Both the position numbers and the translations under genes were made by a program. Of a DNA stretch of 61,217 nt, positions 4,516 to 39,045 are shown piece after piece (position 1 is the first letter of the stretch; each line of letters begins with the position of its first letter). The stretch lies in the IMG/VR virus record IMGVR_UViG_3300027741_000065, positions 1-61,217 of that record; one strand, given 5' to 3'. A model generated the notes under the pieces. That model was not told where the DNA came from. It was given only the letters and a program-made list of their open reading frames with translations, and searched no databases. The DNA comes from a virus. Its lineage: Duplodnaviria > Caudoviricetes.

Positions 4516-7500
4516 ATGGATGTATTGATGCCAGATGGTACTACCATCACTGGTGTACCGGAGGGTATAACTCAATCAGAATTGCTTGCAAGATACAACA
4601 AGTTAGTTCCATCTACTGAAAGCGCAGTAGAACCATCCGAAGTCCAGCCACAAACTGGACTCTCCGCCTTTGCTCCATCCGTAATGCGTGGTGGGCGTGG
4701 ATTGGTTTCTCTCATGGGTGATGTTGCTCCAGCAATGATTGCCAAAGCTGTAGGTGCGAATGACTATGCCAAGCAGCAGATGAAAGAAGCTGCCGCATAT
4801 CAAAAAGAAACAGAAGCTTTATATCCATCTGCTGTACCATCGTTTACCAACATCAAGGGTGTTGGCGATGCATTAACTTACATTGTTGAAGCGGTGGGTG
4901 AGGCTATTCCCACCCTTATACCAAGTTTGTTTACTGGCGGCGCAGCAGCAGTTGCTGGCCGTGGTGCAGTTGCAGCAGCTAGAGTTGCAGCAGAGAAAGC
5001 AGCGGCTACAAGCATGGCTTCTGGCGTAACCGCTGAAGCTGCAAAAGAGATTGCTCTTAAAGCCGGTGTTAATGCCGCTAAACGTGAGGCGTTAAAGTAT
5101 GAGATAGCTGGATCATTGGTTGGTTCAGCAGCGCAAAACGTCCCAGATGTGTACCAAGGATTGTACGAAAAAGGTTACGACAACCTTCCGGCTGCATTGT
5201 TATTTGGTGGATTTAATACCGTATTGGATGCTGTTACTCCAATCAACTTATTGCGCAAATCCAAGTTGTCTGGCATCCCAGAGAATGAAATTATTGGCGC
5301 TTGGTACAAACGTGCAGGTAAGGGCGCACTCGAAGGAATGGTTTCCGAGGGCGTCACTGAGTCAATTCAAGAGATGTCAAGTGCAGCAGCTGAAAAGTTT
5401 GTTGACAGCAACAATGACTTCTTTACACCGCAAAACTTTGAGCGGTTTATCAATGCTGGACTCAAGGGTGGTCTTGGCGGCGCTGGTATTTCTGCGGCTA
5501 CTAACGTGGCGTTTGGCCGTAAAGAGGAGGAAGTCCCCCCTTCTCCATTGGCTGCTGTACCTCCATCCAATAGTCCAATTGTTGGAACTACAAAAGTAAA
5601 TGTTGGAGGGAAGGAAAGCATTAAAGTTGTCAGGCAAGATGGAAGCGTAGACATTGACGGCGTTCAAGTCACACCGCCAACTGCTGGTATTGCTACGCTA
5701 CCAACCCAACCTGGCGATCAAGCAATAGTTACGACTGCACCAACTCAAGAAGGTCAAGGCATAACTACACTTGTTCCCCCGGTCCAACAAGATATCACAG
5801 GCGAAGAATCTCAGGACCAACAGCAACTAATTGATGAAGCCAATCAAATTCTTGGTACGCCTACTGTAACACCCGTTACTGTTGGGCAAACACCAGACAT
5901 CATAGATCTCCTGCCCAAAGAACCAAAAGGAACTACTAGTGGCCCTAAAACCATTGAAACCCAGCAAACAACGCCGCAAGAACAACAAGCGCCCACAGCC
6001 CCTGTAACCTGGGAAACAATTCAGCCCGGACAAGATATAACTCTTTATCGTGGTGAGAATAAAGAGAACCTAAAAGAAGGTGAATGGTGGACAACAGATA
6101 AAGCCAAAGCGGAAAAATTTGGTGAAGTAACAGAAGTAACTTTACCTGCTGATATAGTTGGAAAGCATTCTGTTCAGGGTCATGGCGGGCCTGATGAGTT
6201 TGTATTCCCCACTCCAGGAAGCCGCCCAACTGACTTGGCTAAAAAGCCTGAAGTAACTGCGCCCCCTGCAATCACAGGAGGTCCATCTACGCCTAAAGGT
6301 CCGGTTGCTCCAGTAGAAAAACCTGTGGAAGTTGCACCTACTCCTGAGCCTACTGCAACAGAAGAAAAGCCAACCAACATTGATGAAGTTATAAGGTCAT
6401 ATCGTGATGACCCAGATGTTGCTGCTGGTGTGATTGCAAATGATTTAGTTGGGCAAACACATTTAACTGCTGAAGTAAGGCAGATTGCAAAAACCTATTT
6501 AACAGATGGTGAAGATGCTGGGCGTACACAATTTAAAGAAAGTGTGCAAGACCCTGATAGTGGTTTTGGTCTTTTAGGTTTAACGCAACCGGAAATGGAT
6601 GCGTACTTTGATGAGATGGATCAATATTTAACCGAGAGATCCAAAATTTTTAGGGCAGAGCCTGCACAGAGTGCTGCATTGCCTCAACTCCCAGCCGGGG
6701 AAACCAAGCCCGTAGAAGGTGAAGCTGCACCTACTGGCGGTCCTACTGCACCAACTGGTGAAACTAAACCTGTAGAAGGTGAAGCTGCTCCTACGGGAGG
6801 CCCTGCTGCGCCCGCCGGTCCAGCCAAACCTCCAAAGGTAAAGCTTACTGATGAGGAAAAGGCCAAGGCTGCGGAAGAAAAGAAGGCGGCTGATGAAGCA
6901 AAGGCCAAGGCTGCGGAAGAAAAGAAGGCGGCTGATGAAGCAAAGGCCAAGGCTGCAGAAGAAAAAGCTGCTGCTGACAAAGCGGCTGAAGAGCAAAAGA
7001 AAAAGTTGGAAGAGTTCAACAAGCAGCCAATGAAGGTTGCAATGGATGAAGGTAACGCTGATACAGTTGCTTCTCTTCTATATGGTAAGTCTGTACCTCC
7101 AGAACTTCATCCTATTATTCTTTCAGAAGGATTGATCCGTATTCCTGTAAATATGGATGAAGTTGAAAAAATTGAGTCTGCTTTAGTTAAGTATGGTTTT
7201 ACGATTACAGGGCGCGATGTTCCTGCTACTACAGATGATCCTGCTTACCAAGGTCCAGAGCGATTAACTATATCTGCGTTATACAAACCAGAAAAAACAA
7301 GCATTGAAGGTGGCGGTGCTGAATTTGGTGGAAACCGTAAAGGCAAGCCAAAAAATGTTCAGCCAATAACAAAAGACGCTACAGACGGTCAGATCAACAA
7401 GATGCTGGCCGCTGTAAGTAAAGAAGAGTTGCTAGATGTCACATCAAACCCAAACAGTTCGTTTGGCGCAATGATGTTCAAGGAAGGTATTGTCAGCTAC

Positions 7501-10500
7501 ATCTTGTCACCAGTTGATTACATGCTTAAAGAATTAAAAGCATCAACTAGTCTTTATATTAATAGCCAAATGGGTGGGAAGCAAGCTATTAAGTTGGCCT
7601 TGCAACGTGGAATGGAAACGCAAGTACAAACTCTACTGCAACAATATGCAGATAGTTTGACTGACCTTCAGAAAATTTTTGATTCCAATCCGCGCATAGC
7701 TGATTTGTCTCTTGCTTTAAAAGATAAATACATCAAAGATGAGTTTGTTAGAGAGGCAATAAAAAAATATACAGACGACGGATTAAAACTGCGATCCACA
7801 TTTGAAGAAAAATTTAAAAATTTTACGCAAGTTTTTTCAAATTTGTATCAGTTGTTTGCTGGTAATGAAGACTCAACAGACCAGACTAACCGCATAGTTA
7901 AAAAAGAAACTGAAGTACCGCCAGAGCTTGGCAACATCATCCGCCGTGGTATGCGTGATCACCGCCAAGGCCGTAACGTAGATGTTGAAGACTTTGTAAA
8001 AACCTTTGGGCTTTTCCCAGGTGGCGTTGACTTTGGTAACTGGGTCAATCAATCTGAGCGTGCGGCTCACTTAAACGCTATCTATGATGCCATGTACGAC
8101 ATGGCTGATTTGTCTGGCATTTCTCCAAAGATGCTTGGATTAGACCAAAAGTTAAAAATAGCTATTGGAGCGCAAGGTAGAGGCGGTAAAACTGCAGCTC
8201 ATTACATACCAAAGCTCAATGAAATCAACCTTACTAAAACTAAGGGAGATGGAACTTTGGGCCATGAGTGGCATCACGGCTTAGACCATAACTTGCGATT
8301 GACAACCAACGGCAAAATATTGATGGCCGATACAGTTGTTATGCTTAAAGGCATGATGGACGTTGATAGGGTTGAAAACAATCTTCGTAGTATTTTGCGA
8401 GATGCTGCTAATACTGCAGACAACCGTAACCTTCCGCCAAAGAAAGCAATGTTTGCTGCCGTTACACAGGGCAGATACGACCAGCAACCTTCTATTTATC
8501 AAAATTCAAACGAGCCAACTAAATTTTACAAAGATGCTCGCAATTTAGATGATGGCGCATCACCTCCTTATTGGAGTTCAGATACGGAGATGTTATCTCG
8601 TGGATTTGAGTCCATGTTGTTTGATGCATCTAAAGGTGGAAGCCCGTACCTTGTTGGCCCAGATAGGGCTGATGGTTACATATCTCCAAAAAATGGATAT
8701 GCAGGAACCTCTTATCCAACTGGTAAAGAGCGCCCAAATATTAATGAAGTGTTTAAGCAGATGCTTGAACAGATTGACCCAGAAACACTGGAAGTCAAGA
8801 CTTACAAAATGGAAACAAAAATTGTTTACATTGAAGATCTTGGCTATGCTGTTTTGGATCAATACAACCTTAGCACAGGCGGCGATGGAACATTAATTTG
8901 GTACAAAGACGAAAAACAAGCAGAACATATTAAATCATCTCGCAATGGAAATGATAGAGCTTTAACTCCATACAGGATACAGATTGGTAAAGTTAATAGT
9001 CGCATCCTGGATATCTCTAAGCGTGTTGACGCAATCATGGAAGAGATGGGTCTGTTTAAGTGGCCTGAGATTAAGAACGGATCAATGGCTGAGTCCATGT
9101 TCTATCACATGCGCCAAGGCTGGTGGCCCAAGAACAACCGAGAGCTGGCTGAATACGGCATTAAAGCTTACCTTCAAAAGCCCGAGCTGCTTGGATTTAA
9201 TCCGGCTAAAGATCAAAGCGAGATTGACAAATACAAAATTTCAGACTTTGAAGGTGACCGGGTAAAACTTAAGCAAACTCAGGAAGATTTTGAGGCTGCA
9301 GCTGCTAGGTATATAGGCCAAATTATCACCGACATGCGAGCTTCTGGTTCTGACACCAAAGCCATCTACGATTACATTGTTAACCTGTATCAAAACCAGC
9401 CAACGCTGGATGTTCAGTCTGTCCTAAGCAAGACTAACAACGCCTACTCCACACCTCTACCTATTGCATTCCTGGCTGGTATGTTGGCTCGTATCAAGTC
9501 AACAACTACCGTATTTGATCCCACTGGCGGCAATGGAATGTTGGTGGTTGCAGCCAACCCACAAAATGTAACAACGATAGAGTTGGATCCTCATCGCGCT
9601 AATAACATGGAGCTGATGCAAATTGGCAATGTTATTCAAGGAGACACTACTGAGGAAGTAAAAAAACTTAGAGACCAAGAGGTTGATGTTGTTTTAGCCA
9701 ATCCACCATTTGGCGCTCTTTCTACTCCGGTAAAAGTACCATCTTGGACGGGGCAGGATTACAGAATTGGTACTTTAGATCAGTTGATTGCAGCTGAATC
9801 TTTACGCACTATGGCTAACAATGGTCATGCCATATTGATACTTGGAGCGCATCCAAAGCCAGGTACTGTAACTTCAACAGACCGAGTGTTCTTGAATTGG
9901 CTCTACGGTAACTATAACGTAGCAGATCATTTTGAAATTGCTGGTAATTTATATCGTAAACAAGGTGCGTCTTGGCCGTTGCGCTTCTTGGTTATTGCCG
10001 GTAGAAACCAAACGGAAAATGCTTATCCAATTGACTTTACTGTTGATCGGATAACTTCATTTGATGAACTTTGGAGTAGATATGTTCAAGCCAGTGATCG
10101 TAGCGAAAAAGTCGTGGTGGGTACCGGAAAAAAACAGCAGCCTGCTGGCGGTGCAAATCAACAGCCCGGAGGAGTACCAACAGGCAATACGTCAGAAGAT
10201 GGAGAGCTTGGCGGAGGAGTTGGGGCTGGAGAGGGCGCTGGCAACGGCGAACCACTATCTCCAACAGGAGGGGGCACGGGCACTTCCGGAGCCGGGGGAC
10301 GAGGAACAGCTGGTGGAAATGGTACTGGAGAACAACAGCCGCCTAATGGAAAAGGTAAACGAGGGGGATCCAGCGATAGCGAAACCGGCGGAACCGGAGG
10401 ACGCACAGGTAGCAGTGAAAAATCAGGAGATGAACTGGGAGGACTTTCTGACCTAGACCTAGATGACATCTTTGACAATCTAGGTAAGCCAGAAAAGCCA

Positions 10501-13500
10501 AAGGGTGGTCCTCGCGCCCCTGCAGCTCCTCGCACTCCACGGGGTGAATCTACTGGAGGTCCAAAAACTCCAAGAGGCCCATCAGTCAAAGCCCCAACAG
10601 CCATTCCTACAGAGTTGGAAGGGCTAGGTCTGGAAGACTTATTGGGAGAGTTGGATGAGGCTTTAAATGGAAAACCTCCAGAAGCACCCAAGCCTCCAAA
10701 ATTTGAAGCTCCAACAGGACTTGGCGCTAAACCAAAAAGAGAAAACAAAAAGCCAGTACAGGAAACTAAAAAACCAGTACAGCTGTTGCTTACATATTCC
10801 GCTCTATCTGGAATGGATAACTACTATAGAGCGCAATATTTTAAATACCTTGAAAACAAACAAGTTAATGCGGCACTGTCTCGTATAGCCCAGAACGCCA
10901 AGAACACTAGCGATGACCCTAACAGCGGCCTGTATTCCCGCAAAGGTGATCAAGATTACGCCAATGTGCAGCCCATCATTCAACGTGTATGGGAAGCTAT
11001 TGGGCAAAAGATTAGTGATGTAACGCAGCGTATCAAGCAGGTTTACGCATTGCTGGTTACTAAATTTGGTGAGCCAATCAAAGCGCATCTACGTACGTTT
11101 GTTGAAACATTGCGAAACAAAGATAAACGGCGTCCAAAGAATCAAACCCCAGTTCAGTCTGAACCCATTGATACCGAATCTCGGGTTGTGTACCTTGGCA
11201 AGTCTAGGTTTGCAAGCGATGGCATTTACCTACCCCGAGCACAGTCACAATATGCTTACTCTGCTCTGGAAAACCTGGAAGCACAGGTGGGTGATATTGA
11301 TGAGTTTGTAGCCAATGAGCTGGGCTATCCATCTGTTGAAAAGATGGCTAAAGGATTGGCTGGATACCAGATTGACGGTCTAGCTCTAGCTATTCAAGCC
11401 AACAAACTTGGTAAAGGCTTCATCATTGGTGACGACACCGGTGTGGGTAAAGGACGCGCTGCAGCCGCAATGTTGGTATGGGCTAAAAAGAATGGAAAGA
11501 TCCCAATCTTTGTTACCCTGAGCGACTCTTTGTACACAGCAATGTATGAAGATTTGAGCAATATTGGGCATGAAGATATGCAGATTGGAATGACCAATAA
11601 TGATTCTATTATTCAGAAAAACATTGGTAACGGCAAAACCAAAATTGTATTCCAGAATAAAGGAAAGAATGGTCCAGACCTTATGTCCTACATCACCAAG
11701 CATGGTGAGCTGCCTAAGGGCATGGATGTATTGTTTACTTCCTACTCTCAACTGAATGGTGGAGCTGGTTCCCCGGCTCGACAAAATGCAATTGCTTCTT
11801 TGGTAGCTGCAGGTAAAGCTGTGTTGGTTATGGATGAAGCCCATAATGCAGCAGGCATACCAACTAACCCAGAATCAATGGGCCAGAACGCATTTTTTAT
11901 GTCTTTGCTTACAGGTAAAAACTTGTTGGGCAAAGACAAAGATGCGCCAGAAGATTGGCAGCCACCATCAGCTTTGTACCTGTCGGCTACTTTTGCTAAG
12001 CGGCCTGACAACATGCCGTTGTATATACATACAAACCTACGCTATGCAGCCAACACTCCAGAAGAGTTGACTGAATTGTTTGGCAAAGGTGTAAAAACTG
12101 ACGTACTACAACAAGTTTCATCTGAAATGCTTGTTGAGTCTGGTTCCATGTTGCGCCGCGAGAGATCGTATGAGGGCGTAACTATGGACTTTGTTACAGA
12201 TGAAGCCAATGCTCCACGCGATACAAGGGAGGTTGATAGGGTTACAACTATTCTTCGCTCTTTAGTTAATGCTGACCGCGCCCTCAAAGAGTGGTTGAAG
12301 ACGGGAGATGCTCAAAAAGATATTATTGAAAAGCTTGGACCTAAGGGTTCTATGTTGGGCAAACAAGGGCCTAACGCATTTACCCAAGCAAGAAGTAACA
12401 TGTTTACTTCCGTGGTTCACAACTACATTGGCACTCTGTTGCTGTCTACCAAAACTCAAACTGCAGTAGACATGGTAGTCGACAAAATGAATAACGGCGA
12501 GAAGGTTGTTATTGGTTTGCAGAGCACCAATGGCAGCGCCCTGGATGATTTTGTTCAAAAGAACAACATCAAGATTGGAGACGAGATTTCCAACTTTGGG
12601 TGGCAAACTTTAATTCAACGTGCAATTGATTCAACCAGAAAAATTACATTGAAGGCTGCCAATGGAGATAAAAAAGATGATGTAAAAGTGGAGATTCCTT
12701 ACTCCATGATGCCGCCCTCTATAAGGGCTGGCTATGACAACTTGGCATTAATGATCAAAGACTTTCAGTCTGATTTACCTGTTGCTCCTATTGATTTCAT
12801 ACGCACAGAGCTTGAAAGTAAGTATGTCTGGACAATTGATGGTAAGACTAATGTTGGCAATACTCCACCGGCTGGAGTTAAGTCTCGGCGTTTAGTTGTT
12901 AAAGAAGTGACTGGTCGTAACACTGCTATTGACTACCGTGGGGACAAGCCAAAATACATGGCACTTGACAACCCCGAGCGTGTTCAAATGATTTCCCAGT
13001 TTCAAAATGGGGAAGACTCAGAAAAAGGGCCAATTGACGTACTAATAATTAATTCTGCTGGTGCTACCGGTATTTCCTTACATGCATCTGTTGAGGCGTT
13101 TGATCAGCGTCCTCGCCACATGATTGTGCTGCAGCCACATGGAGATATTAGCGTCTTCATTCAGTTGCTTGGACGTATTCATAGGACGGGTCAAGTTGAG
13201 TGGCCGTCATTTACCATGCTTGCTACCGGCATCCCAGCTGAGCGGCGTATTCTGGCAATGCTTCGTAAGAAGCTATCCAGCTTAAAGTCCAATACTTCAG
13301 GCGGATCCAGTAGTACAAAGGTTAATGGCGTTGACTTCATCAACATGTATGGGGACGTAGCAACTGCCGAGTACCTTAATGAACATGCCGACATCCGTGA
13401 GTTTTTAGGCCAGCCATTATTTCAAGATCCCGATAAGGAAGCGGGAACAGACTTGGCTCACAAAGCTTCTGGCACGGCGGGATTGTTGTCCTCTGCAGAT

Positions 13501-16500
13501 CAGCAAGAGTTTTTTGACTCTATTGAGGCTAGTTACACAGCGGCGATTGAACTTCGTAACGCCACCGGGACTAATGCTCTAGAGCGTAGGGTTCTTCCTT
13601 TGAATGCAGAGATGATCAAGGAAAACCTTATTGAAGAGGGATTGGACAACTCTAACCCATTTTTGTCTGATGTGGTTATGGCTCAGTTCAACGTAGATGT
13701 GATTGGGTCCATACCTACTGAGCAAAACATTAAAGATGATATTGCTCAAGCTTTGAACGGACGTACTCCCCAGCAAGTAGTAGATGAGATTGATGCTGAA
13801 CTCAACACTATTTTTATTGAAGTGCGCAACCAAATTATTTTGAAGCAACAGGATTTGGATAGAGCTATTGCGGCACCAGAAGCTACAGAAAAAGACAAAG
13901 AACAATTTACAAATCAAAAAAATGGATTGATCGGGGATTTTGTAAAACTTGGCGCTCGTCGGGAGCAAACGCTTAATGCTTTAAGGTACGAATACGCAAT
14001 TGGCATGGGCTATCAAGATTTTGAAATTAACAACGTGCCTGCAAGCGCAGTTGTTATTGGCATTAAAGTTGACAAGTCTCGTATTGGAAAATCAAAAACA
14101 GGTAACCCTTACTCTCCATCCAACTTCCAAGTTATCTTTAAGCGCAACATTCCAGATGGTAGGGTTGCTCCTTCATTAGCTACGCTAGAAGGAAAAAGCA
14201 TTAAAAAAAGTAGTGGTTACCGCAATCCCCCTTTAAATGAATTTTTTGCCTTACGTTCTGTAACGGGTGGCCGCACTACCCGCTACATTGCCCTGGGGAA
14301 CATCCTGCGGGCTGCACAACTTTTTGATAAAGATGGTGGAGAAATTGCTAGGTTTACTATTGCGAACCAAGATGAGCCGGTGTCTGGTGTGGTCATGCCT
14401 GCCAAATACGAGCCCGTGGCTATCAGTTCACAGCCAGTGCGGTTGCGTAATCCTAATGCGGCATCGCAGTTCGTCTTAGCAGCATGGCACCAATTCCTGC
14501 AGAAGAAGTATCAAGATACCCAGTTTGATTCTTACAAAGATGTAGCAGACCAAGTAAAGCCATTGCTACTAGAAGGCTTGCCAGACTTTGGCCCATTGGA
14601 GGAGACCAAGCGTAGGAACTATAGCGGCACTATTTTGCGCGGCTCACAAAACATGTGGACGCTTACGCTAGATACGTACCGTCCAAGCAATGGTTTCCGT
14701 TTAGTTATTGATGAATCAGCCCCCAAGAAGTTTATTTCCTCTCCAGACATTAAAGATCTGGTTGGGGCTATGGCTAAAAAACGCAACGGACCTTATGAAA
14801 TGTCCGACAGGAGCTACATCCGCGATCCGGAAAAAGTTGCTGCGTTGGTTAAGTTCTTACACAAAAACTATCCCGCTACTGTAGAAGCTGATTTTGGAAC
14901 ATTGGCTCGTGAACTAATGAAGGTGGAGTTTGACAACAGCGAGGCCAATAAGGGCATGTTGTCTCGTGGAGTTGCTGAGGGTGGTCAAAGCGTTGAAGAC
15001 GTTCAATCCCAAATTATTCCAATCAACGGTATCACTGTTAAAGTTGTTCAGTCTGCTGACAACCTTCCGGATACAGCTGCTCCTTCCGATGTTGAGGGTG
15101 CTTGGTACTCCGGAAACACCGTTTACCTTGTGGCTGATAACTTGCCTAATGCGAAACGTGTACAGGAAGTACTAGCGCATGAAGCAATTGGCCATGCCGC
15201 ATTGGAAGCAATGCTTGGCAAGGAAATGATGGGTGAGTTAGTAAAGAACGTACAAAACCTAGAGAAAACTTCAAATCTTATTAAGAAGATTTCTGAGCAA
15301 GTAGACCGCACACAACCCGGCTTGTCTCCAGAAAACCGGGCCAAAGAGATCGTAGCCGTAATGGCAGAGCGCGGGATTCAGAATGGACTGATAAAGCGTG
15401 TTTTTCAGGCAATACGTAACTTCCTTAAAAAACTTGGCTTCACAATTGAGTTTTCTGACAGTGATATCTTAGCTCTGCTGAGGAATGCAGAGAAATTTGT
15501 GGCTGGAGAGTTTAGCCCAACAGGGGAATCACTCTATTCTAGGAAAAACATTTATGGAAAACCAGCACCATTGGCTGTATTCCAAGCTCCAGATGAATTG
15601 AAGCTAACGGATACGTTTATCCAAAAGTATGTTGACAAGCAAATTGATACCAAGCGTATTGTTGAGGCCATCACAAAAGAAACTGGTCGTATCCAAGACG
15701 CTTGGAATCCATACCTTAAAGAAGAGTTGTTCCACGGAAGAACTGCTAAACAGACCATAGACTTTCTGAAGAATGATTTGCGTCCCTTGTTGGAAGACAT
15801 GGACAAGCGCGGAATAAATCTGGATGATTTCAATGAGTACCTCCACAATCGCCATGCCAAAATTCGTAATGAAGTTATAGCTATACGTGATCCTGGAAAA
15901 CCTGATGGCGGATCTGGAATATTTAACCAAGAAGCAGATGACTACATGGCAGATCTGGATAAAAATCCAGAACTTAAAAAGAATTTTGAAGCTCTTGCAG
16001 CCAAAATTGATAGCATCATTGAGGAAACTCAAAACCTGTTAGTGTCATCCGGCTTGGAAAAGCAAAGCACTATTGATGGTTGGCGTGAATTGTTTCCATT
16101 CTACGTTCCTCTTAACCGAGAGGAGGATGAGCTTGATTTCATTAACTCAAGCAGCGGCATGGGCCAAGGATTCAATGTTAGCGGCCCCTTCTCAAAAGCA
16201 GCCATAGGCTCGTTCAAGACTGTTAAGGACATTGTTGGAAGCATTGCCCTACAACGTGAGCGTGCAATTGTTAGATCAGAGAAAGCTATCGTTGGACGGG
16301 CAGTATATGCCCTGGCTATCCAAAACCCCAATCCAAACTTTTGGATGCCTATCAACCCAGAGGCCATCAAGAACAAGCAGAAGCTTATTGATGAAATGGT
16401 AAAGATGGGCATGTCTTTGGCTGATGCTGAAAACATTTTTCAAGAGCCAAAAACTGGTAGCCTGGATAAGAAAACTAACGTAGTTAAGTATGCAGTCAAT

Positions 16501-18282
16501 CCAAATATGCGCAACTCACCTAACGTGCTTCATACACGTATCAATGGTGAAGACCGCTACGTGTTCTTTAACCCGGGAAACCCCAACGCTAAGCGTATGG
16601 TGGAATCTTTAAAGAACCTTGATACCCATCAAGTAGATGAAGTATTGAGTGGCATTGCCGAGATAACCCGTTTCATTGCAGCTGCAAGCACTCAATACAA
16701 CCCAATTTTTGGTGCATTCAACTTTGTGCGTGACGTTCAGAGTGCTGCACTCAACCTGTCCAGCACTCCTATTGCTGATAGTAAAGTTCAGGTTGTTAGT
16801 GACTCTGCAAAGGCTGTAAGGGCAATATACCGTCATTTGCGCGGAAAAGGTGCTACTACTCCAGAGATGCAGAACTGGATAGATTTGTTTGAACAGTTTC
16901 AAAAAGCTGGTGGTCAAACAGGTTTTCGAGAGCAGTTTAGCCGAGGCAAAGGCAAGGAAACCATTGTTGCTCGTGAGCTTGAACGCTTAAACCGTGGGAA
17001 CGTCAAGAAAACTGCCTATGCCGTATTTGATTGGCTGTCTGACTATAACGATGCTATGGAGAACGCAGTTCGTCTTTCTGCGTTTAAAGCTGCCTTAGAT
17101 AAGAATATCTCTGTAGATCAAGCTGCAAGCATAGCCAAGAACATTACTGTTAACTTTAACCGTAGGGGTGCAAGCACTCAAACGATTGGCGCCTTGTATG
17201 CTTTCTTTAATGCTAGTGTTCAGGGTACAGCACGGTTAGCTCAAACGCTTTTTGCCAAAGACAAAAATGGCAAGATGATTTTAAGTTCTATTGGTAAAAA
17301 GATTGTTGCCGGCGGAATGCTAATTGGAGTTATGCAAGCCGCCATCTTGGCTATGGCTGGTTTTGGTGCAGATGATCCTCCCGAGTGGGTAAAGTCTAAA
17401 AACCTTGTTATTCCAATTCCAGGTAGTGAAAGCAAGTACTTAACTGTACCAATGCCATTGGGTTTCAACATCTTCCCCAATGTTGGCCGCATTGCTTCTG
17501 AGTACATGTTGGTCCAATCTGGTGCGATGGGTGGCAAGCGTGATATTAAGAAAACCATTACTTACCTTGGATCTTCAATATTTGATTCCGTTAACCCGCT
17601 TGGATCCAGCACGTTTGCTCAAACATTGGCACCTACTATTGTTGATCCATTTGTCGGCATTGCTGAAAACAAAGATCCTTTTGGTCGTCCAATTTCAAAA
17701 GAGAACAAAGCTCTTGCGCCAACACCTGGCTACCAGCGCAGCCGGGATTCGGCCAATGGATTGAGCCAGGCAATTGCTTATGGCCTTAACTACATAACTG
17801 GTGGAGGCGATAAAGGAATTGGTTTAGTTAGTCCAACTGCAGACCAGCTGAGCTATATAGCAGGGCAATATACCGGCGGTGTTGGAAAACTTGGTATTCA
17901 AAGTTACGAGTACGCAAAGTCAAAAGTAACGGGGGAGGAGGTACAACCATACCAAGTTCCAGTTGTTGGTAAGCTGTACGGTGATACCAATACACCCGCT
18001 GCTATTGCTGGTCACTTCTACGAAAACATCATTGAGATGTCCAAGCATGAGAACATCATCAAGGAAATGAAGGGAAAGGGCGTAACCGAGTATTACAAGG
18101 AAAACCCTGAGGCTAGGCTATACCATCGAGCCAACTATGTTTCCAACGAAGTTGCTCGACTTAAGAAAGAAAAAAAGGCGCTGATGGAGAAAAATGCACC
18201 AGACGCCCAGATTAAAAGAAAAGATGAACGCATAAAAGAAGTGATGGCAGCGTTCAACAAAGAAGTTACAAAACGCCAATGA
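4516..18282 (+). CDS. Giant DarB-like polyvalent protein: ART-like, LPD1/zincin, N6-adenine MTase, Strawberry-notch SF2 helicase, zincin, LPD38-like C-terminus
   Basis: 4588-aa ORF; LYRG..WTT..DEFVF (~6040-6210); VDFGNW..HEWHH..YWS..EMLSRGFE (~7940-8620); FDPTGGNG and NPPF (~9515-9711); GDDTGVGKGR, DEAH, SAT, QLLGRIHRTGQ (~11430-13200); LAHEAIGH (~15180); TVNFNRRG..YAFFNASVQG near C-terminus. Confidence 0.9.
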   Translation: MDVLMPDGTTITGVPEGITQSELLARYNKLVPSTESAVEPSEVQPQTGLSAFAPSVMRGGRGLVSLMGDVAPAMIAKAVGANDYAKQQMKEAAAYQKETEALYPSAVPSFTNIKGVGDALTYIVEAVGEAIPTLIPSLFTGGAAAVAGRGAVAAARVAAEKAAATSMASGVTAEAAKEIALKAGVNAAKREALKYEIAGSLVGSAAQNVPDVYQGLYEKGYDNLPAALLFGGFNTVLDAVTPINLLRKSKLSGIPENEIIGAWYKRAGKGALEGMVSEGVTESIQEMSSAAAEKFVDSNNDFFTPQNFERFINAGLKGGLGGAGISAATNVAFGRKEEEVPPSPLAAVPPSNSPIVGTTKVNVGGKESIKVVRQDGSVDIDGVQVTPPTAGIATLPTQPGDQAIVTTAPTQEGQGITTLVPPVQQDITGEESQDQQQLIDEANQILGTPTVTPVTVGQTPDIIDLLPKEPKGTTSGPKTIETQQTTPQEQQAPTAPVTWETIQPGQDITLYRGENKENLKEGEWWTTDKAKAEKFGEVTEVTLPADIVGKHSVQGHGGPDEFVFPTPGSRPTDLAKKPEVTAPPAITGGPSTPKGPVAPVEKPVEVAPTPEPTATEEKPTNIDEVIRSYRDDPDVAAGVIANDLVGQTHLTAEVRQIAKTYLTDGEDAGRTQFKESVQDPDSGFGLLGLTQPEMDAYFDEMDQYLTERSKIFRAEPAQSAALPQLPAGETKPVEGEAAPTGGPTAPTGETKPVEGEAAPTGGPAAPAGPAKPPKVKLTDEEKAKAAEEKKAADEAKAKAAEEKKAADEAKAKAAEEKAAADKAAEEQKKKLEEFNKQPMKVAMDEGNADTVASLLYGKSVPPELHPIILSEGLIRIPVNMDEVEKIESALVKYGFTITGRDVPATTDDPAYQGPERLTISALYKPEKTSIEGGGAEFGGNRKGKPKNVQPITKDATDGQINKMLAAVSKEELLDVTSNPNSSFGAMMFKEGIVSYILSPVDYMLKELKASTSLYINSQMGGKQAIKLALQRGMETQVQTLLQQYADSLTDLQKIFDSNPRIADLSLALKDKYIKDEFVREAIKKYTDDGLKLRSTFEEKFKNFTQVFSNLYQLFAGNEDSTDQTNRIVKKETEVPPELGNIIRRGMRDHRQGRNVDVEDFVKTFGLFPGGVDFGNWVNQSERAAHLNAIYDAMYDMADLSGISPKMLGLDQKLKIAIGAQGRGGKTAAHYIPKLNEINLTKTKGDGTLGHEWHHGLDHNLRLTTNGKILMADTVVMLKGMMDVDRVENNLRSILRDAANTADNRNLPPKKAMFAAVTQGRYDQQPSIYQNSNEPTKFYKDARNLDDGASPPYWSSDTEMLSRGFESMLFDASKGGSPYLVGPDRADGYISPKNGYAGTSYPTGKERPNINEVFKQMLEQIDPETLEVKTYKMETKIVYIEDLGYAVLDQYNLSTGGDGTLIWYKDEKQAEHIKSSRNGNDRALTPYRIQIGKVNSRILDISKRVDAIMEEMGLFKWPEIKNGSMAESMFYHMRQGWWPKNNRELAEYGIKAYLQKPELLGFNPAKDQSEIDKYKISDFEGDRVKLKQTQEDFEAAAARYIGQIITDMRASGSDTKAIYDYIVNLYQNQPTLDVQSVLSKTNNAYSTPLPIAFLAGMLARIKSTTTVFDPTGGNGMLVVAANPQNVTTIELDPHRANNMELMQIGNVIQGDTTEEVKKLRDQEVDVVLANPPFGALSTPVKVPSWTGQDYRIGTLDQLIAAESLRTMANNGHAILILGAHPKPGTVTSTDRVFLNWLYGNYNVADHFEIAGNLYRKQGASWPLRFLVIAGRNQTENAYPIDFTVDRITSFDELWSRYVQASDRSEKVVVGTGKKQQPAGGANQQPGGVPTGNTSEDGELGGGVGAGEGAGNGEPLSPTGGGTGTSGAGGRGTAGGNGTGEQQPPNGKGKRGGSSDSETGGTGGRTGSSEKSGDELGGLSDLDLDDIFDNLGKPEKPKGGPRAPAAPRTPRGESTGGPKTPRGPSVKAPTAIPTELEGLGLEDLLGELDEALNGKPPEAPKPPKFEAPTGLGAKPKRENKKPVQETKKPVQLLLTYSALSGMDNYYRAQYFKYLENKQVNAALSRIAQNAKNTSDDPNSGLYSRKGDQDYANVQPIIQRVWEAIGQKISDVTQRIKQVYALLVTKFGEPIKAHLRTFVETLRNKDKRRPKNQTPVQSEPIDTESRVVYLGKSRFASDGIYLPRAQSQYAYSALENLEAQVGDIDEFVANELGYPSVEKMAKGLAGYQIDGLALAIQANKLGKGFIIGDDTGVGKGRAAAAMLVWAKKNGKIPIFVTLSDSLYTAMYEDLSNIGHEDMQIGMTNNDSIIQKNIGNGKTKIVFQNKGKNGPDLMSYITKHGELPKGMDVLFTSYSQLNGGAGSPARQNAIASLVAAGKAVLVMDEAHNAAGIPTNPESMGQNAFFMSLLTGKNLLGKDKDAPEDWQPPSALYLSATFAKRPDNMPLYIHTNLRYAANTPEELTELFGKGVKTDVLQQVSSEMLVESGSMLRRERSYEGVTMDFVTDEANAPRDTREVDRVTTILRSLVNADRALKEWLKTGDAQKDIIEKLGPKGSMLGKQGPNAFTQARSNMFTSVVHNYIGTLLLSTKTQTAVDMVVDKMNNGEKVVIGLQSTNGSALDDFVQKNNIKIGDEISNFGWQTLIQRAIDSTRKITLKAANGDKKDDVKVEIPYSMMPPSIRAGYDNLALMIKDFQSDLPVAPIDFIRTELESKYVWTIDGKTNVGNTPPAGVKSRRLVVKEVTGRNTAIDYRGDKPKYMALDNPERVQMISQFQNGEDSEKGPIDVLIINSAGATGISLHASVEAFDQRPRHMIVLQPHGDISVFIQLLGRIHRTGQVEWPSFTMLATGIPAERRILAMLRKKLSSLKSNTSGGSSSTKVNGVDFINMYGDVATAEYLNEHADIREFLGQPLFQDPDKEAGTDLAHKASGTAGLLSSADQQEFFDSIEASYTAAIELRNATGTNALERRVLPLNAEMIKENLIEEGLDNSNPFLSDVVMAQFNVDVIGSIPTEQNIKDDIAQALNGRTPQQVVDEIDAELNTIFIEVRNQIILKQQDLDRAIAAPEATEKDKEQFTNQKNGLIGDFVKLGARREQTLNALRYEYAIGMGYQDFEINNVPASAVVIGIKVDKSRIGKSKTGNPYSPSNFQVIFKRNIPDGRVAPSLATLEGKSIKKSSGYRNPPLNEFFALRSVTGGRTTRYIALGNILRAAQLFDKDGGEIARFTIANQDEPVSGVVMPAKYEPVAISSQPVRLRNPNAASQFVLAAWHQFLQKKYQDTQFDSYKDVADQVKPLLLEGLPDFGPLEETKRRNYSGTILRGSQNMWTLTLDTYRPSNGFRLVIDESAPKKFISSPDIKDLVGAMAKKRNGPYEMSDRSYIRDPEKVAALVKFLHKNYPATVEADFGTLARELMKVEFDNSEANKGMLSRGVAEGGQSVEDVQSQIIPINGITVKVVQSADNLPDTAAPSDVEGAWYSGNTVYLVADNLPNAKRVQEVLAHEAIGHAALEAMLGKEMMGELVKNVQNLEKTSNLIKKISEQVDRTQPGLSPENRAKEIVAVMAERGIQNGLIKRVFQAIRNFLKKLGFTIEFSDSDILALLRNAEKFVAGEFSPTGESLYSRKNIYGKPAPLAVFQAPDELKLTDTFIQKYVDKQIDTKRIVEAITKETGRIQDAWNPYLKEELFHGRTAKQTIDFLKNDLRPLLEDMDKRGINLDDFNEYLHNRHAKIRNEVIAIRDPGKPDGGSGIFNQEADDYMADLDKNPELKKNFEALAAKIDSIIEETQNLLVSSGLEKQSTIDGWRELFPFYVPLNREEDELDFINSSSGMGQGFNVSGPFSKAAIGSFKTVKDIVGSIALQRERAIVRSEKAIVGRAVYALAIQNPNPNFWMPINPEAIKNKQKLIDEMVKMGMSLADAENIFQEPKTGSLDKKTNVVKYAVNPNMRNSPNVLHTRINGEDRYVFFNPGNPNAKRMVESLKNLDTHQVDEVLSGIAEITRFIAAASTQYNPIFGAFNFVRDVQSAALNLSSTPIADSKVQVVSDSAKAVRAIYRHLRGKGATTPEMQNWIDLFEQFQKAGGQTGFREQFSRGKGKETIVARELERLNRGNVKKTAYAVFDWLSDYNDAMENAVRLSAFKAALDKNISVDQAASIAKNITVNFNRRGASTQTIGALYAFFNASVQGTARLAQTLFAKDKNGKMILSSIGKKIVAGGMLIGVMQAAILAMAGFGADDPPEWVKSKNLVIPIPGSESKYLTVPMPLGFNIFPNVGRIASEYMLVQSGAMGGKRDIKKTITYLGSSIFDSVNPLGSSTFAQTLAPTIVDPFVGIAENKDPFGRPISKENKALAPTPGYQRSRDSANGLSQAIAYGLNYITGGGDKGIGLVSPTADQLSYIAGQYTGGVGKLGIQSYEYAKSKVTGEEVQPYQVPVVGKLYGDTNTPAAIAGHFYENIIEMSKHENIIKEMKGKGVTEYYKENPEARLYHRANYVSNEVARLKKEKKALMEKNAPDAQIKRKDERIKEVMAAFNKEVTKRQ
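5939..6007 (+). CDS. Possible overprinted 22-aa basic peptide (+1 frame in giant gene)
   Basis: AAGGA-7nt-GTG; MALKPLKPSKQRRKNNKRPQPL*; lies in a linker. Confidence 0.3.
   Translation: MALKPLKPSKQRRKNNKRPQPL
6697..6984 (+). repeat. In-frame tandem repeats: 2x60 bp (GETKPVEGEAAPTGGP) and ~3x42 bp (KAKAAEEKKAADEA)
   Basis: 6697-6756/6757-6816 similar; 6859-6900 identical to 6901-6942; degenerate third copy to 6984. Confidence 0.9.
10082..10456 (+). CDS. Overprinted 124-aa acidic helical protein in the +1 frame of the giant gene
   Basis: GGAG-5nt-ATG; protein-like composition while the main frame is a Gly-rich linker between MTase and helicase. Confidence 0.7.
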   Translation: MFKPVIVAKKSWWVPEKNSSLLAVQINSPEEYQQAIRQKMESLAEELGLERALATANHYLQQEGARALPEPGDEEQLVEMVLENNSRLMEKVNEGDPAIAKPAEPEDAQVAVKNQEMNWEDFLT

Positions 18283-36401: not shown

Positions 36402-36658
36402 AAACAATCATCCATGTAAATCAGCATGTTGTTAAGGCCAATAGGAAGAATGGGACTAATGATCCCGTGCTTACTGTTAAGACCTACAAGGAGAATAAGT
36501 ACGGGCATGAGGTAACCATCCACGGCGATAGTAAGGTTGTTTACTCACCTGATAAGCCTTTGTCTTGCGGGGCGCATGTTTGGATAGAGACTCAGGGCGA
36601 AGTTACAGTTGTAAATGACAATGACTACTTGTTGGCTCTTGGGCCTTGTGGAAAATGA
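36398..36658 (+). CDS. Conserved phage protein
   Basis: IHVNQH..KPLSCGAHVWIET. Confidence 0.75.
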   Translation: MKTIIHVNQHVVKANRKNGTNDPVLTVKTYKENKYGHEVTIHGDSKVVYSPDKPLSCGAHVWIETQGEVTVVNDNDYLLALGPCGK

Positions 36659-39045
36659 ACGTAGACGCGCTTAGTAAGGCTATAGCCCTTCTTCCTGTAA
36701 ACGAGCAGGAGGCGTTCTTTGATGAGCTGGATGAGTACCGGGCAAGTCTTCTTCGGGAAGAGGCTCAGGCGGACTTTCTTAAGTTTGTCCACTCTATGTG
36801 GCCTGGGTTTATAAATGGCCGCCACCATAAGGTGATGGCAAGGAAGTTTGAAGAGATAGCCTCTGGGAAAATTAAGCGCCTGATCATTAACATGCCACCC
36901 CGGCACACCAAGTCTGAGTTTGCGTCCTACCTATTGCCGGCTTGGTTCCTGGGGAAGTACCCCAACAAAAAAATCATTCAGACTTCAAACACGGCTGAAC
37001 TTGCGGTTGGCTTCGGACGTAAGGTTAGGAACTTAGTGGGGAGCGAGCAGTACTCCAAGATCTTCCCAAATGTGAATCTTCGCCAGGATAGTAAAGCGGC
37101 CGGCCGTTGGTCTACCAATAAAGACGGAGAGTACTTCGCTATCGGCGTCGGCGGAACAGTAACAGGTAAGGGTGCTGATCTACTTATTATTGACGACCCG
37201 CACTCGGAGCAGGAAGCCGCCCTAGCATCCGGAGATCCATCCGTGTTTGACAAAGTGTACGAGTGGTACACATCCGGTCCGCGTCAGCGTCTACAGCCAG
37301 GTGGATCAATAGTTGTGGTTATGTGTATGACCGGAGATACATTGGTTCTGATGGCTAATGGAGAAAGCATCCAACTAAAAAACATTCGGGCTGGGGATGT
37401 TGTTGCTACGTTTGAAAAAGGAAAACTAAGTACAAGCAGGATTAACAACTGGCGGTCAAGTGGCGTTGATTCCATATACAAGATAAAAACACAATCTGGT
37501 AAAATTCTTCGTGCAAACGAGAGGCACCCGTTTCTCGTTATGAATGATGGAGTATTGGAATGGACAAGACTGAACCAGCTACGATTGGGAGATTTACTTG
37601 TATCGTTGAAGGATGCAACAGGCCTTCAAGGGCAAAAACAAAACCTAGCAAATGCGGACCATGCCAATCCAGCGACAATTACCATCGACGAAATCCTGAA
37701 GCGCCACGCAAGCCAATTGGCAGTCACGGAAAGTGGATTGGAAAGCATTGCGAATGCGGACAACCAGTTCACTGCAAGGGATTGTGCGCGTCTTGCTATC
37801 GAAAAGGCTACACCCCACCTCCAACTACCGCCGATCAGAGAAGGGGAAGACGGATCAAGCACCGGTATGGAATTACGGCCTCAGACTATGCTCGGATGGT
37901 TGAAGAGCGCGACAACAAGTGTGATGTCTGTGGCGAACCGCCTTCTTCCAAAAACACAAGGGCGCATTGGAACGGAAAGCTTTGCATTGACCACGATCAC
38001 AACACAGGAAAAGTTAGAGGACTACTTTGCAACGACTGCAACCTTACAGTTGGCTACGGAAAAAAGCCGAGCATTCTTGAAAGAGCTGCATCTTATCTCC
38101 GACTTCACGGTTGATCCGATAGTTAGCATTACCCCAGATGGCAGAGAAGAAGTATTTGACGTTGAGGTTGATCGGACAGAAAACTTCATTGCCAACGGCG
38201 TAGTTAGCCATAACACCCGCTGGGCAAAGAGAGATTTGACCGGAAGGATCATCCAATCGTCCATAGAGAAGGATGGAAACGATGACTGGGAGGTGATCGA
38301 CTTCCCCGCCATTCTTCCTAGCGACAGACCTTTATGGCCTGAATTCTGGAAGTTGGAAGAACTGGAAGCCCTACGCTCAGAACTGCCAGTCGCAAAATGG
38401 AATGCCCAGTATCAACAAAGCCCAACATCGGAAGAGGGCGCTATTGTTAAAAGGGAGTGGTGGAAGGAATGGAAGAAGGAAGATCCGCCTAGGTGTGAGT
38501 TTGTTATACAGAGCTGGGATACCGCATTCTTAAAATCAGAGCGCGCTGACTACTCGGCTTGCACCACCTGGGGTGTTTTCTACATGAACGAAAACTCCGA
38601 GGACGCACACATTATTCTTTTGGATGCGTTTAAGAAGCGTATGGAGTTTCCAGAGCTTAAGGAAAAAGCATTCAACCACTATAAAGAATGGGAACCGGAT
38701 GCGTTTATAGTTGAGGCCAAGGCTTCTGGAGCACCTTTGATATTTGAGCTAAGAGCAATGGGCATACCTGTTCAGGAATTTACTCCAAGTAGGGGTAATG
38801 ATAAGATGGTAAGGATTAATTCTGTATCCGATCTTTTTGCCAGCGGTAAAGTTTGGGCTCCATCTACACGTTGGGCCGATGAATTGATAGAGGAGATGGC
38901 AGCATTTCCTAATTCAGACCATGACGACTTGGTTGACTCAGCTACCCAGGCACTAATCAGATTCAGAAAAGGTGGATTCATTAGGCTTCAAACAGACGAG
39001 CAGGATGAGATCCAATCATTCCGCCGCAAGACATCTTATTACTAA
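36655..39045 (+). CDS. terL: Terminase large subunit, intein-containing
   Basis: MPPRHTKS, IIDDP, VVM|TRW after splicing, SWDTA, HDDLVD. Confidence 0.95.
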   Translation: MNVDALSKAIALLPVNEQEAFFDELDEYRASLLREEAQADFLKFVHSMWPGFINGRHHKVMARKFEEIASGKIKRLIINMPPRHTKSEFASYLLPAWFLGKYPNKKIIQTSNTAELAVGFGRKVRNLVGSEQYSKIFPNVNLRQDSKAAGRWSTNKDGEYFAIGVGGTVTGKGADLLIIDDPHSEQEAALASGDPSVFDKVYEWYTSGPRQRLQPGGSIVVVMCMTGDTLVLMANGESIQLKNIRAGDVVATFEKGKLSTSRINNWRSSGVDSIYKIKTQSGKILRANERHPFLVMNDGVLEWTRLNQLRLGDLLVSLKDATGLQGQKQNLANADHANPATITIDEILKRHASQLAVTESGLESIANADNQFTARDCARLAIEKATPHLQLPPIREGEDGSSTGMELRPQTMLGWLKSATTSVMSVANRLLPKTQGRIGTESFALTTITTQEKLEDYFATTATLQLATEKSRAFLKELHLISDFTVDPIVSITPDGREEVFDVEVDRTENFIANGVVSHNTRWAKRDLTGRIIQSSIEKDGNDDWEVIDFPAILPSDRPLWPEFWKLEELEALRSELPVAKWNAQYQQSPTSEEGAIVKREWWKEWKKEDPPRCEFVIQSWDTAFLKSERADYSACTTWGVFYMNENSEDAHIILLDAFKKRMEFPELKEKAFNHYKEWEPDAFIVEAKASGAPLIFELRAMGIPVQEFTPSRGNDKMVRINSVSDLFASGKVWAPSTRWADELIEEMAAFPNSDHDDLVDSATQALIRFRKGGFIRLQTDEQDEIQSFRRKTSYY
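37324..38214 (+). mobile_element. Intein (297 aa) in TerL
   Basis: C1 (CMTGDTLV), block B NERHPF, block F/G VFDVEV..NFIANGVVSHN, +1 Thr. Confidence 0.93.
37560..38114 (+). CDS. Endonuclease VII-family nuclease overprinted inside the intein in another frame
   Basis: GGAG-7nt-ATG; RYGIT..CDVCG..IDHDHNTGKVRGLLCNDCN..G..AASYL. Confidence 0.88.
   Translation: MDKTEPATIGRFTCIVEGCNRPSRAKTKPSKCGPCQSSDNYHRRNPEAPRKPIGSHGKWIGKHCECGQPVHCKGLCASCYRKGYTPPPTTADQRRGRRIKHRYGITASDYARMVEERDNKCDVCGEPPSSKNTRAHWNGKLCIDHDHNTGKVRGLLCNDCNLTVGYGKKPSILERAASYLRLHG

Follow-up and report, generated by a model that had tools for sequence, protein, structure and literature searches.

Several genes are known to be embedded out of frame within another gene. 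In phage lambda, Rz1 lies in the +1 frame of Rz. Overprinting also occurs in small viruses such as phiX174, in which B is encoded within A and E within D, and it is usually explained by genome compression. In Bacillus subtilis, comS is embedded out of frame in the nonribosomal peptide synthetase gene srfA-B, and ComS is a regulatory peptide of 46 residues. We compared these cases with a 61,217-nucleotide stretch of DNA (positions 1 to 61,217 of IMG/VR virus record IMGVR_UViG_3300027741_000065; here called the window), which comes from a tailed phage and encodes TerL, a portal, a tail fiber and a helicase. Within a giant gene for a polyvalent protein, the window contains an open reading frame (ORF) of 124 codons, termed S, in the +1 frame relative to that gene. 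Our comparative analysis makes it very probable that S is a real, separately expressed gene embedded in the giant gene.

S resembles Rz1 of the lambda Rz/Rz1 spanin genes (PMC5295617) in being a complete gene with its own start signals inside a gene of the same strand, in another frame, in a tailed double-stranded DNA (dsDNA) phage. However, Rz1 is an outer-membrane lipoprotein and the partner of the product of the containing gene, whereas S has no signal-like N terminus. An o-spanin (Rz1-like) reading of S was rejected, as S contains no Cys and hence no lipobox. Moreover, the host gene of S is 13.8 kb long and the overlapped part encodes a low-complexity linker and not a folded domain, unlike Rz/Rz1. 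As in the phiX174 type of overprinting (overprinted viral genes are covered in PMC8227390), one frame is ordinary while the other is biased and probably disordered, and synonymous variation is suppressed. S differs from those cases in that the genome exceeds 61 kb and the embedded frame is the better conserved one and encodes the product predicted to fold, the host frame being of low complexity. Like comS, S is a small out-of-frame gene in a giant multidomain gene with which it would be co-expressed, but its predicted product is a folded protein of 124 residues and its host is a phage anti-defense gene. Embedded phage genes are thus known; a gene for a folded protein in the linker of a polyvalent protein was not found in the literature searched, supplements not included.

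S starts with an ATG at position 10082 and ends with a TAG at 10454 to 10456 (10082 to 10456, plus strand; 124 codons plus stop), and its product would be 124 amino acids long. It is fully embedded, on the same strand and with a frame offset of +1, in the giant gene at 4516 to 18282. A Shine-Dalgarno-like GGAG motif (10073 to 10076, plus strand) precedes the ATG with a 5-nt spacer. Similar motifs lie 3 to 10 nt upstream of 21 of the 29 genes in the window, and the motif and spacing of S match those of other window genes. The +1 open run starts at 10055, directly after a TAA (10052 to 10054, plus strand) that closes the frame 27 nt 5′ of the S start and is kept in all 21 aligned sequences. Alternative starts exist at 10064 (an in-frame ATG) and 10061 (TTG); diverse members of the S family begin at the position equivalent to 10082. 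The S product is acidic (pI 4.51; 23 Asp plus Glu versus 12 Lys plus Arg) and predicted to be mostly helical. In the giant frame, the same DNA (10081 to 10455, plus strand) encodes residues 1856 to 1980, a Gly-rich linker that joins the methylase-like and helicase modules and has 40 Gly in 125 residues, compared to 8.7% Gly in the whole giant protein. The initial annotation, made from the window alone, had proposed a hidden +1 gene at these positions, with this ribosome-binding motif and an acidic helical product opposite a Gly-rich main frame; both descriptions proved accurate, and the frame is kept in homologues.

Relatives were collected by scanning viral contigs with a segment of the giant protein, which returned 29 loci. 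All loci fetched in the analysis together contained 26 distinct S-region sequences, of which 24 were inside a giant ORF; 22 of the latter were intact, one (L017) was cut by the contig end and one (L052) was interrupted. Thus, among 23 complete, distinct phage-type sequences other than the window, where S is intact as well, 22 have an uninterrupted S frame. A +1 frame broken while the linker is kept, which the initial annotation had named as evidence against the gene, was encountered in L052 only (1 of 23). In all 20 complete close relatives (64 to 81% identity), the +1 frame uses the same ATG and TAG as in the window and has no stop between them. The +2 frame is stop-rich in these 20 relatives, despite its long open run in the window. 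None of the 21 aligned sequences varies in the GGAG motif, either of the in-frame ATGs or the TAG, in agreement with the predicted conservation of the start and stop signals. Two distant loci, L021 and L024, encode giant proteins that are 41 to 43% identical to that of the window and keep an intact S, with the start and stop unchanged, at 35 to 42% identity. For the same bases in these two loci, the S alignments reached z values of 16 to 18, compared to 7.6 for the linker, and both loci retain the GGAG-5nt-ATG arrangement.

We measured diversity at giant-frame codon positions 1, 2 and 3 in a codon alignment of 19 distinct sequences. The values were 0.14, 0.06 and 0.43 in the upstream flank, 0.28, 0.18 and 0.12 inside S, and 0.24, 0.18 and 0.50 downstream. 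Position-3 diversity of the main frame therefore falls from 0.43-0.50 to 0.12 inside S, the suppression of synonymous variation that had been anticipated, and variation there follows the 3>1>2 pattern of the S frame. This switch starts at 10081 and is over by approximately 10470. A longer periodicity scan, with 17 rows, divided 7.7 kb of the gene into 66 bins of 40 codons; L004 was omitted, as this locus extends beyond the gene start. Position 3 was less diverse than position 1 in only 3 of the 66 bins, at 10126 to 10479. In the overlap, S had a ratio of the proportions of nonsynonymous and synonymous differences (pN/pS) of 0.40, compared to 1.53 in the giant frame and 1.04 in the +2 frame (0.31, 1.63 and 1.05, respectively, after Jukes-Cantor correction), while in the flank the ratio was 0.14 for the giant frame and 1.39 for the +1 frame. 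Furthermore, the identity of S exceeded that of the linker in 169 of 171 sequence pairs, with means of 0.741 versus 0.627. As judged from these substitution patterns, the comparisons show purifying selection acting on the amino acid sequence of the S frame. Separately, the first 36 bases of S (10081 to 10116) are near-invariant at all three codon positions in the 19 sequences. This invariance exceeds the apparent need of dual coding and may reflect a constraint on the translation initiation region.

We then considered what the S protein imposes on the giant frame. With the S protein fixed and ordinary codon usage, about 10 stops are expected in the giant frame, and this frame was open in none of 3,000 resamples for each of 8 sequences; the region is therefore truly dual-coding. 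The wobble positions of S are 54% G and 5% T, compared to 19% G and 35% T in the gene, and the Gly excess of the giant frame arises because these positions are G-rich and T-poor. Encoded with ordinary codons, the S protein would leave the giant frame with 12.3 ± 2.1% Gly, and with at most 20.3% in 3,000 resamples. The observed value is 32.5%, and the Gly richness of the linker is therefore not a passive shadow of S. The silent sites of S are adjusted so that the giant frame stays open and flexible. Consequently, the proposal that selection on the overprinted gene causes the Gly bias holds in part: S alone accounts for about 12.3% Gly, but the remainder of the observed 32.5% does not follow from S, and the giant frame is selected too. 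These results show that both frames of 372 bases are maintained by selection, each shaping the other, and that the giant frame in the overlap is held open and Gly-rich while being otherwise free to vary.

A profile of S built from 19 sequences was searched against 1.84 billion proteins. It detected 36 representative clusters at an E value of ≤1e-3, 20 of them at ≤1e-10, with identities down to about 30%. A second search for the family gave 97 clusters at 90% identity, mostly gene calls from short contigs. Most family members are 119 to 127 amino acids long and share the features WW.P, LAV, Y..A...K, GDP and a C-terminal L.DFL. AlphaFold2 with 30 diverse sequences produced a model with a predicted local distance difference test score (pLDDT) of 90.9 and a predicted template modeling score (pTM) of 0.83; it superseded a poor model (pLDDT 56.5) made with the 19 close sequences only. 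In the model, a beta-hairpin at residues 5 to 13 is followed by helices, and the invariant WW.P lies on this N-terminal hairpin. The searches and the model show S to be a diverse protein family for which a compact fold is confidently predicted. Using the model as a query, Foldseek gave best E values of 3.4 in PDB and 0.91 in BFVD, the highest Z among 48,161 chains compared by VIA-align was 3.3, with none at Z≥5, and a search of the ESM Atlas with S gave no usable match. The predicted fold of S has no detectable relative, which does not by itself prove a novel fold. S was also compared with the DNA-mimic anti-restriction proteins Ocr and ArdA with regard to a strongly acidic surface and a similar fold: its pI is 4.51, and no Ocr or ArdA chain was among the Foldseek or VIA-align rows, which does not exclude a likeness. 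The single divergent members P0015, P0025 and P0036 had no match among the viral contigs, and P0120 had none among the genome contigs searched. In another divergent member, P0133, the S domain (32% identity) lies behind an unrelated N-terminal extension of about 120 amino acids, a third architecture of the family besides the two fusions described below.

S also occurs outside the giant gene, together with the adjacent linker module of the giant protein, termed L (10429 to 10674, plus strand; delimited by alignment of related sequences). L consists of two conserved acidic motifs, GGLSDLDLDxIF and LEGLGLExLL..L.GK, with a basic spacer between them, and the S stop codon falls within the first of these motifs. 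In P0068, P0098 and P0010 (214 to 221 residues), L is fused in frame after S, which suggests phages with the giant gene split or re-phased around S. In P0004, P0076, P0092, P0107, P0120, P0122, P0131 and P0132, L is fused in frame before S, and three more entries of 203 amino acids were put in this type by length alone. The contig of P0120 (L049) carries a stand-alone L-S gene (5986 to 6645, 219 amino acids) and no giant ORF, and the former giant frame carries a stop within the S span. This gene sits between genes for a HAD_SAK_2 protein and a GmrSD-type restriction enzyme; AccA, TilS and aspartate kinase are encoded on the side of the former, and an HNH protein and others on the side of the latter. 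Over 4.5 kb, the flank shares 97.7% identity with Polynucleobacter rarus, a similarity that stops just before the island. The L-S gene is in a strain-variable island of a P. rarus-like chromosome. The order of the unit is an S 3′ fragment, L, full S and an L 5′ fragment, so that it looks like approximately 1.4 copies of a phage-derived S-L repeat. The same L-S unit was found in other contexts in L050 (3 to 536) and L058 (1872 to 2147).

The sole cultured phage matching both modules across the methylase-helicase junction of the giant protein was Bacteroides phage BS-TP4 (PQ571277.1; PMC12694917); the other two matching records covered the methylase part only. BS-TP4 has a +1 ORF, termed S2, at the same junction (L140, 2342 to 2689) inside gp3, which is unannotated in the record. 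We examined S2 in BS-TP4 and 37 related viral loci (L141 to L177). All 25 distinct peptides were open over 109 to 151 codons, with products of 103 to 144 amino acids, while the +2 frame was never open for more than 65 codons. In a periodicity scan with 29 rows (L160, which has one giant-frame stop, was dropped), position 3 was less diverse than position 1 in only 3 of 40 bins, at 2359 to 2661. Substitutions in this region follow the S2 frame. With six near-duplicates excluded from the 25 distinct sequences, the remaining 19 gave a pN/pS ratio of 0.59 for S2 versus 1.27 in the giant frame. A profile-profile comparison of S and S2 gave a probability of 0.2%, that is, no detectable homology. Additional +1 ORFs of 130 to 131 codons start at the end of the methylase module in the more distant polyvalent-protein genes of L022 (3998 to 4372), L023 (3803 to 4177) and L025 (3785 to 4162). 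The S profile matched the L022 and L023 ORFs weakly, with 13 to 14 bits in a 10-sequence search, and the L025 ORF was not significant.

Some observations weigh against S being a separately expressed gene. The support for its translation is entirely comparative. In L052 (6043 to 6417), a TAG at S codon 80, due to two base changes, interrupts S while the giant frame stays open; this could be either a genuine loss or an error of assembly. S was not found by tblastn in 50,697 GenBank phage records, and therefore no cultured phage carries S; a DNA search with window positions 9300 to 11300 against GenBank phages and PLSDB plasmids also gave zero matches. About 20 of the most divergent family members are represented by their protein sequence only. 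S had no match in Pfam (no family was common to more than 1 of 30 members), PHROGs (best E value of 0.094), NCBIfam (only at E values of at least 0.025, far below the cut-offs), PADLOC or known folds, and no particular function is favored. Finally, the composition of the tract alone favors open alternative frames.

A composition artifact was a serious rival at the outset, because all five alternative frames are unusually open in the tract. According to this explanation, the S ORF is a chance by-product of a Gly-rich, T-poor linker, in which GGN coding removes stops from the other frames and the +1 frame reads Glu, Ala, Val and Leu. Indeed, T content is 13% in the tract, compared to 25% across the gene. 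Nowhere else in the gene are the +2 frame and two of the minus-strand frames open for as long as they are here; one of these runs, an antisense run of 220 codons (10158 to 10820), overlaps S and fits a composition effect, and the +1 run is the second longest of the gene for that frame. The +1 frame was fully open in 7.5% of 5,000 synonymous resamplings of the giant frame with gene-wide usage and in 3.6% of 5,000 within-tract permutations of its codons, so the window by itself places the ORF only slightly outside chance expectation. Once the relatives are considered, the S ORF goes far beyond chance. Composition leaves the substitution periodicity of the S frame unaccounted for, as well as the difference in pN/pS of this frame between the flank (1.39) and S (0.40). 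It also does not explain the invariant start and stop signals, a family extending to about 30% identity, a model with a pLDDT of 90.9 or the intact stand-alone copies, and the +2 frame, although long-open in the window, is filled with stops in relatives. Hence, we regard chance as extremely improbable. The suppressed synonymous variation could instead mark a nucleic acid element (for example, an RNA structure, packaging signal or regulatory site), and the near-invariance of the first 36 bases could partly reflect a translation initiation or RNA constraint. The rest of S, however, is three-periodic in the S frame with changes that are mostly synonymous for S, protein similarity holds at 30 to 40% identity where DNA similarity is low, and co-variation in the protein alignment supports the confident fold. 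We consider that such an element has next to no chance of being the explanation.

Two further explanations accept that S is translated or real. S could be reached by a programmed frameshift (+1 or -2), which would give a truncated methylase-bearing protein ending in S. The S frame is open for 27 nt ahead of its ATG, and a CTT-TGG just upstream of S loosely resembles a +1 shift site, as in prfB. The conserved TAA of the S frame restricts any shift to those 27 nt, however, and CTT is replaced in 8 of 21 sequences (TTA TGG in L005, L006, L008 to L011 and L013; TTG TGG in L015), so there is no conserved slippery site and we rejected this reading on that ground. Furthermore, neither GGAG nor ATG varies, this Met is where diverse members of the family begin, and S occurs in architectures without any methylase; altogether, a frameshift seems very unlikely. 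Alternatively, S may be real but a selfish or neutral passenger, for instance the remnant of a once in-frame domain, in which case its position would be a historical accident. The proteins in which S is in frame with a downstream L (P0068, P0098 and P0010) are in line with this possibility, as they indicate that the frame relation of S to its neighbors has changed in evolution. The position of S is nevertheless kept where the giant protein is only about 41 to 43% identical, an analogous embedded gene occurs at the same junction in Bacteroides phages, and purifying selection argues against a decaying remnant. A passenger is therefore unlikely, although less so than a frameshift.

We thus favor S as a gene embedded in the giant gene and expressed separately from it. 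It is likely, given the conserved GGAG-5nt-ATG, that S is translated on its own by internal initiation on the giant mRNA; S would then be made whenever the giant protein is made. It is conceivable, though doubtful at present, that S works alongside the giant protein during phage-host conflict, serving the methylase-helicase pair as a partner or regulator. The roles suggested in the initial annotation, namely chaperone, inhibitor or packaging partner, are candidate functions. The idea of a joint role draws on the fixed position of S, its presumed co-expression, the recurrent fusion to L and the capture beside a restriction gene. Co-folding of S with module L gave a score of 0.00 in two runs without controls, which speaks neither for nor against binding.

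The giant gene that hosts the overlap (4516 to 18282, plus strand) is a single ORF of 4,588 codons for amino acids. Pfam searches of its product identified LPD1 (residues 1345 to 1420; E value of 1.6e-11), AAA_34 (residues 2297 to 2561; 4.3e-15, above the cut-off), Helicase_C_4 (residues 2795 to 2955; 1.2e-19, above the cut-off) and LPD38 (residues 4286 to 4484; 4.4e-32). LPD1 and LPD38 are domains specific to polyvalent proteins. AAA_34 and Helicase_C_4 form a Sno/SNF2-type helicase module 3′ of S (11404 to 13380, plus strand), so that an SF2 helicase lies C-terminal to a methylase-like module. The latter, a putative N6-adenine methylase module 5′ of S, contains an NPPF motif (9700 to 9711, plus strand; residues 1729 to 1732). 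The N6_Mtase match over this region was below threshold (E value of 0.0013; 18.6 bits versus a cut-off of 20.4), and a PDB sequence search with the module gave no match. The methylase-helicase dyad of polyvalent proteins, with P1 DarB as the archetype, was described by Iyer et al. (2017; PMC5512222), and the giant gene resembles it in having LPD domains, a helicase and a methylase-like module in the same order. The two differ in the gene embedded at the dyad junction, which is present here and not described in the main text of that article; in the main text, as distinct from its supplements, the words "overlapping," "frameshift" and "linker" do not occur. Based on its domains, the giant protein is probably a DarB-like polyvalent protein, as the initial annotation had suggested: the helicase and the LPD domains bear this out, while the methylase, indicated by the NPPF motif and the sub-threshold match, remains putative. 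Elsewhere in the giant gene, the +1 frame has an open run of 163 codons at 5108 to 5599, outside the stretch covered by the periodicity test (6952 to 14634). In the TerL ORF of the window (36646 to 39045; 799 amino acids), the parts matched in PHROGs are residues 28 to 228 and 517 to 779, and the approximately 290 unmatched residues between them may represent an insertion, for instance an intein or homing endonuclease.

In large dsDNA phages, long and truly dual-coding regions are uncommon and rarely have good support, and S is an unusually clean case, with distinct selection signatures in both frames over 372 bases. The seemingly empty linkers of giant polyvalent proteins can conceal folded proteins that are invisible to standard gene callers; on long contigs, S is unreported because the giant ORF masks it. 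S represents a new family without a recognizable fold at the heart of a phage counter-defense module, and it offers a handle on the regulation or assembly of this module. We would speculate, with considerable reserve, that an embedded +1 gene in the methylase-helicase linker (S in freshwater Polynucleobacter-associated phages, S2 in Bacteroides gut phages and the ORFs of L022, L023 and L025) is a general and old feature of the DarB-like design across the phages of unrelated hosts, providing a fast-evolving partner or regulator in fixed proportion to the giant protein, and that bacteria captured S-L into defense islands as a decoy or interference factor directed at these phages. The bacterial copies beside a restriction gene and the presence of S2 in BS-TP4, a cultivable and prevalent human gut phage, make these questions approachable by experiment.

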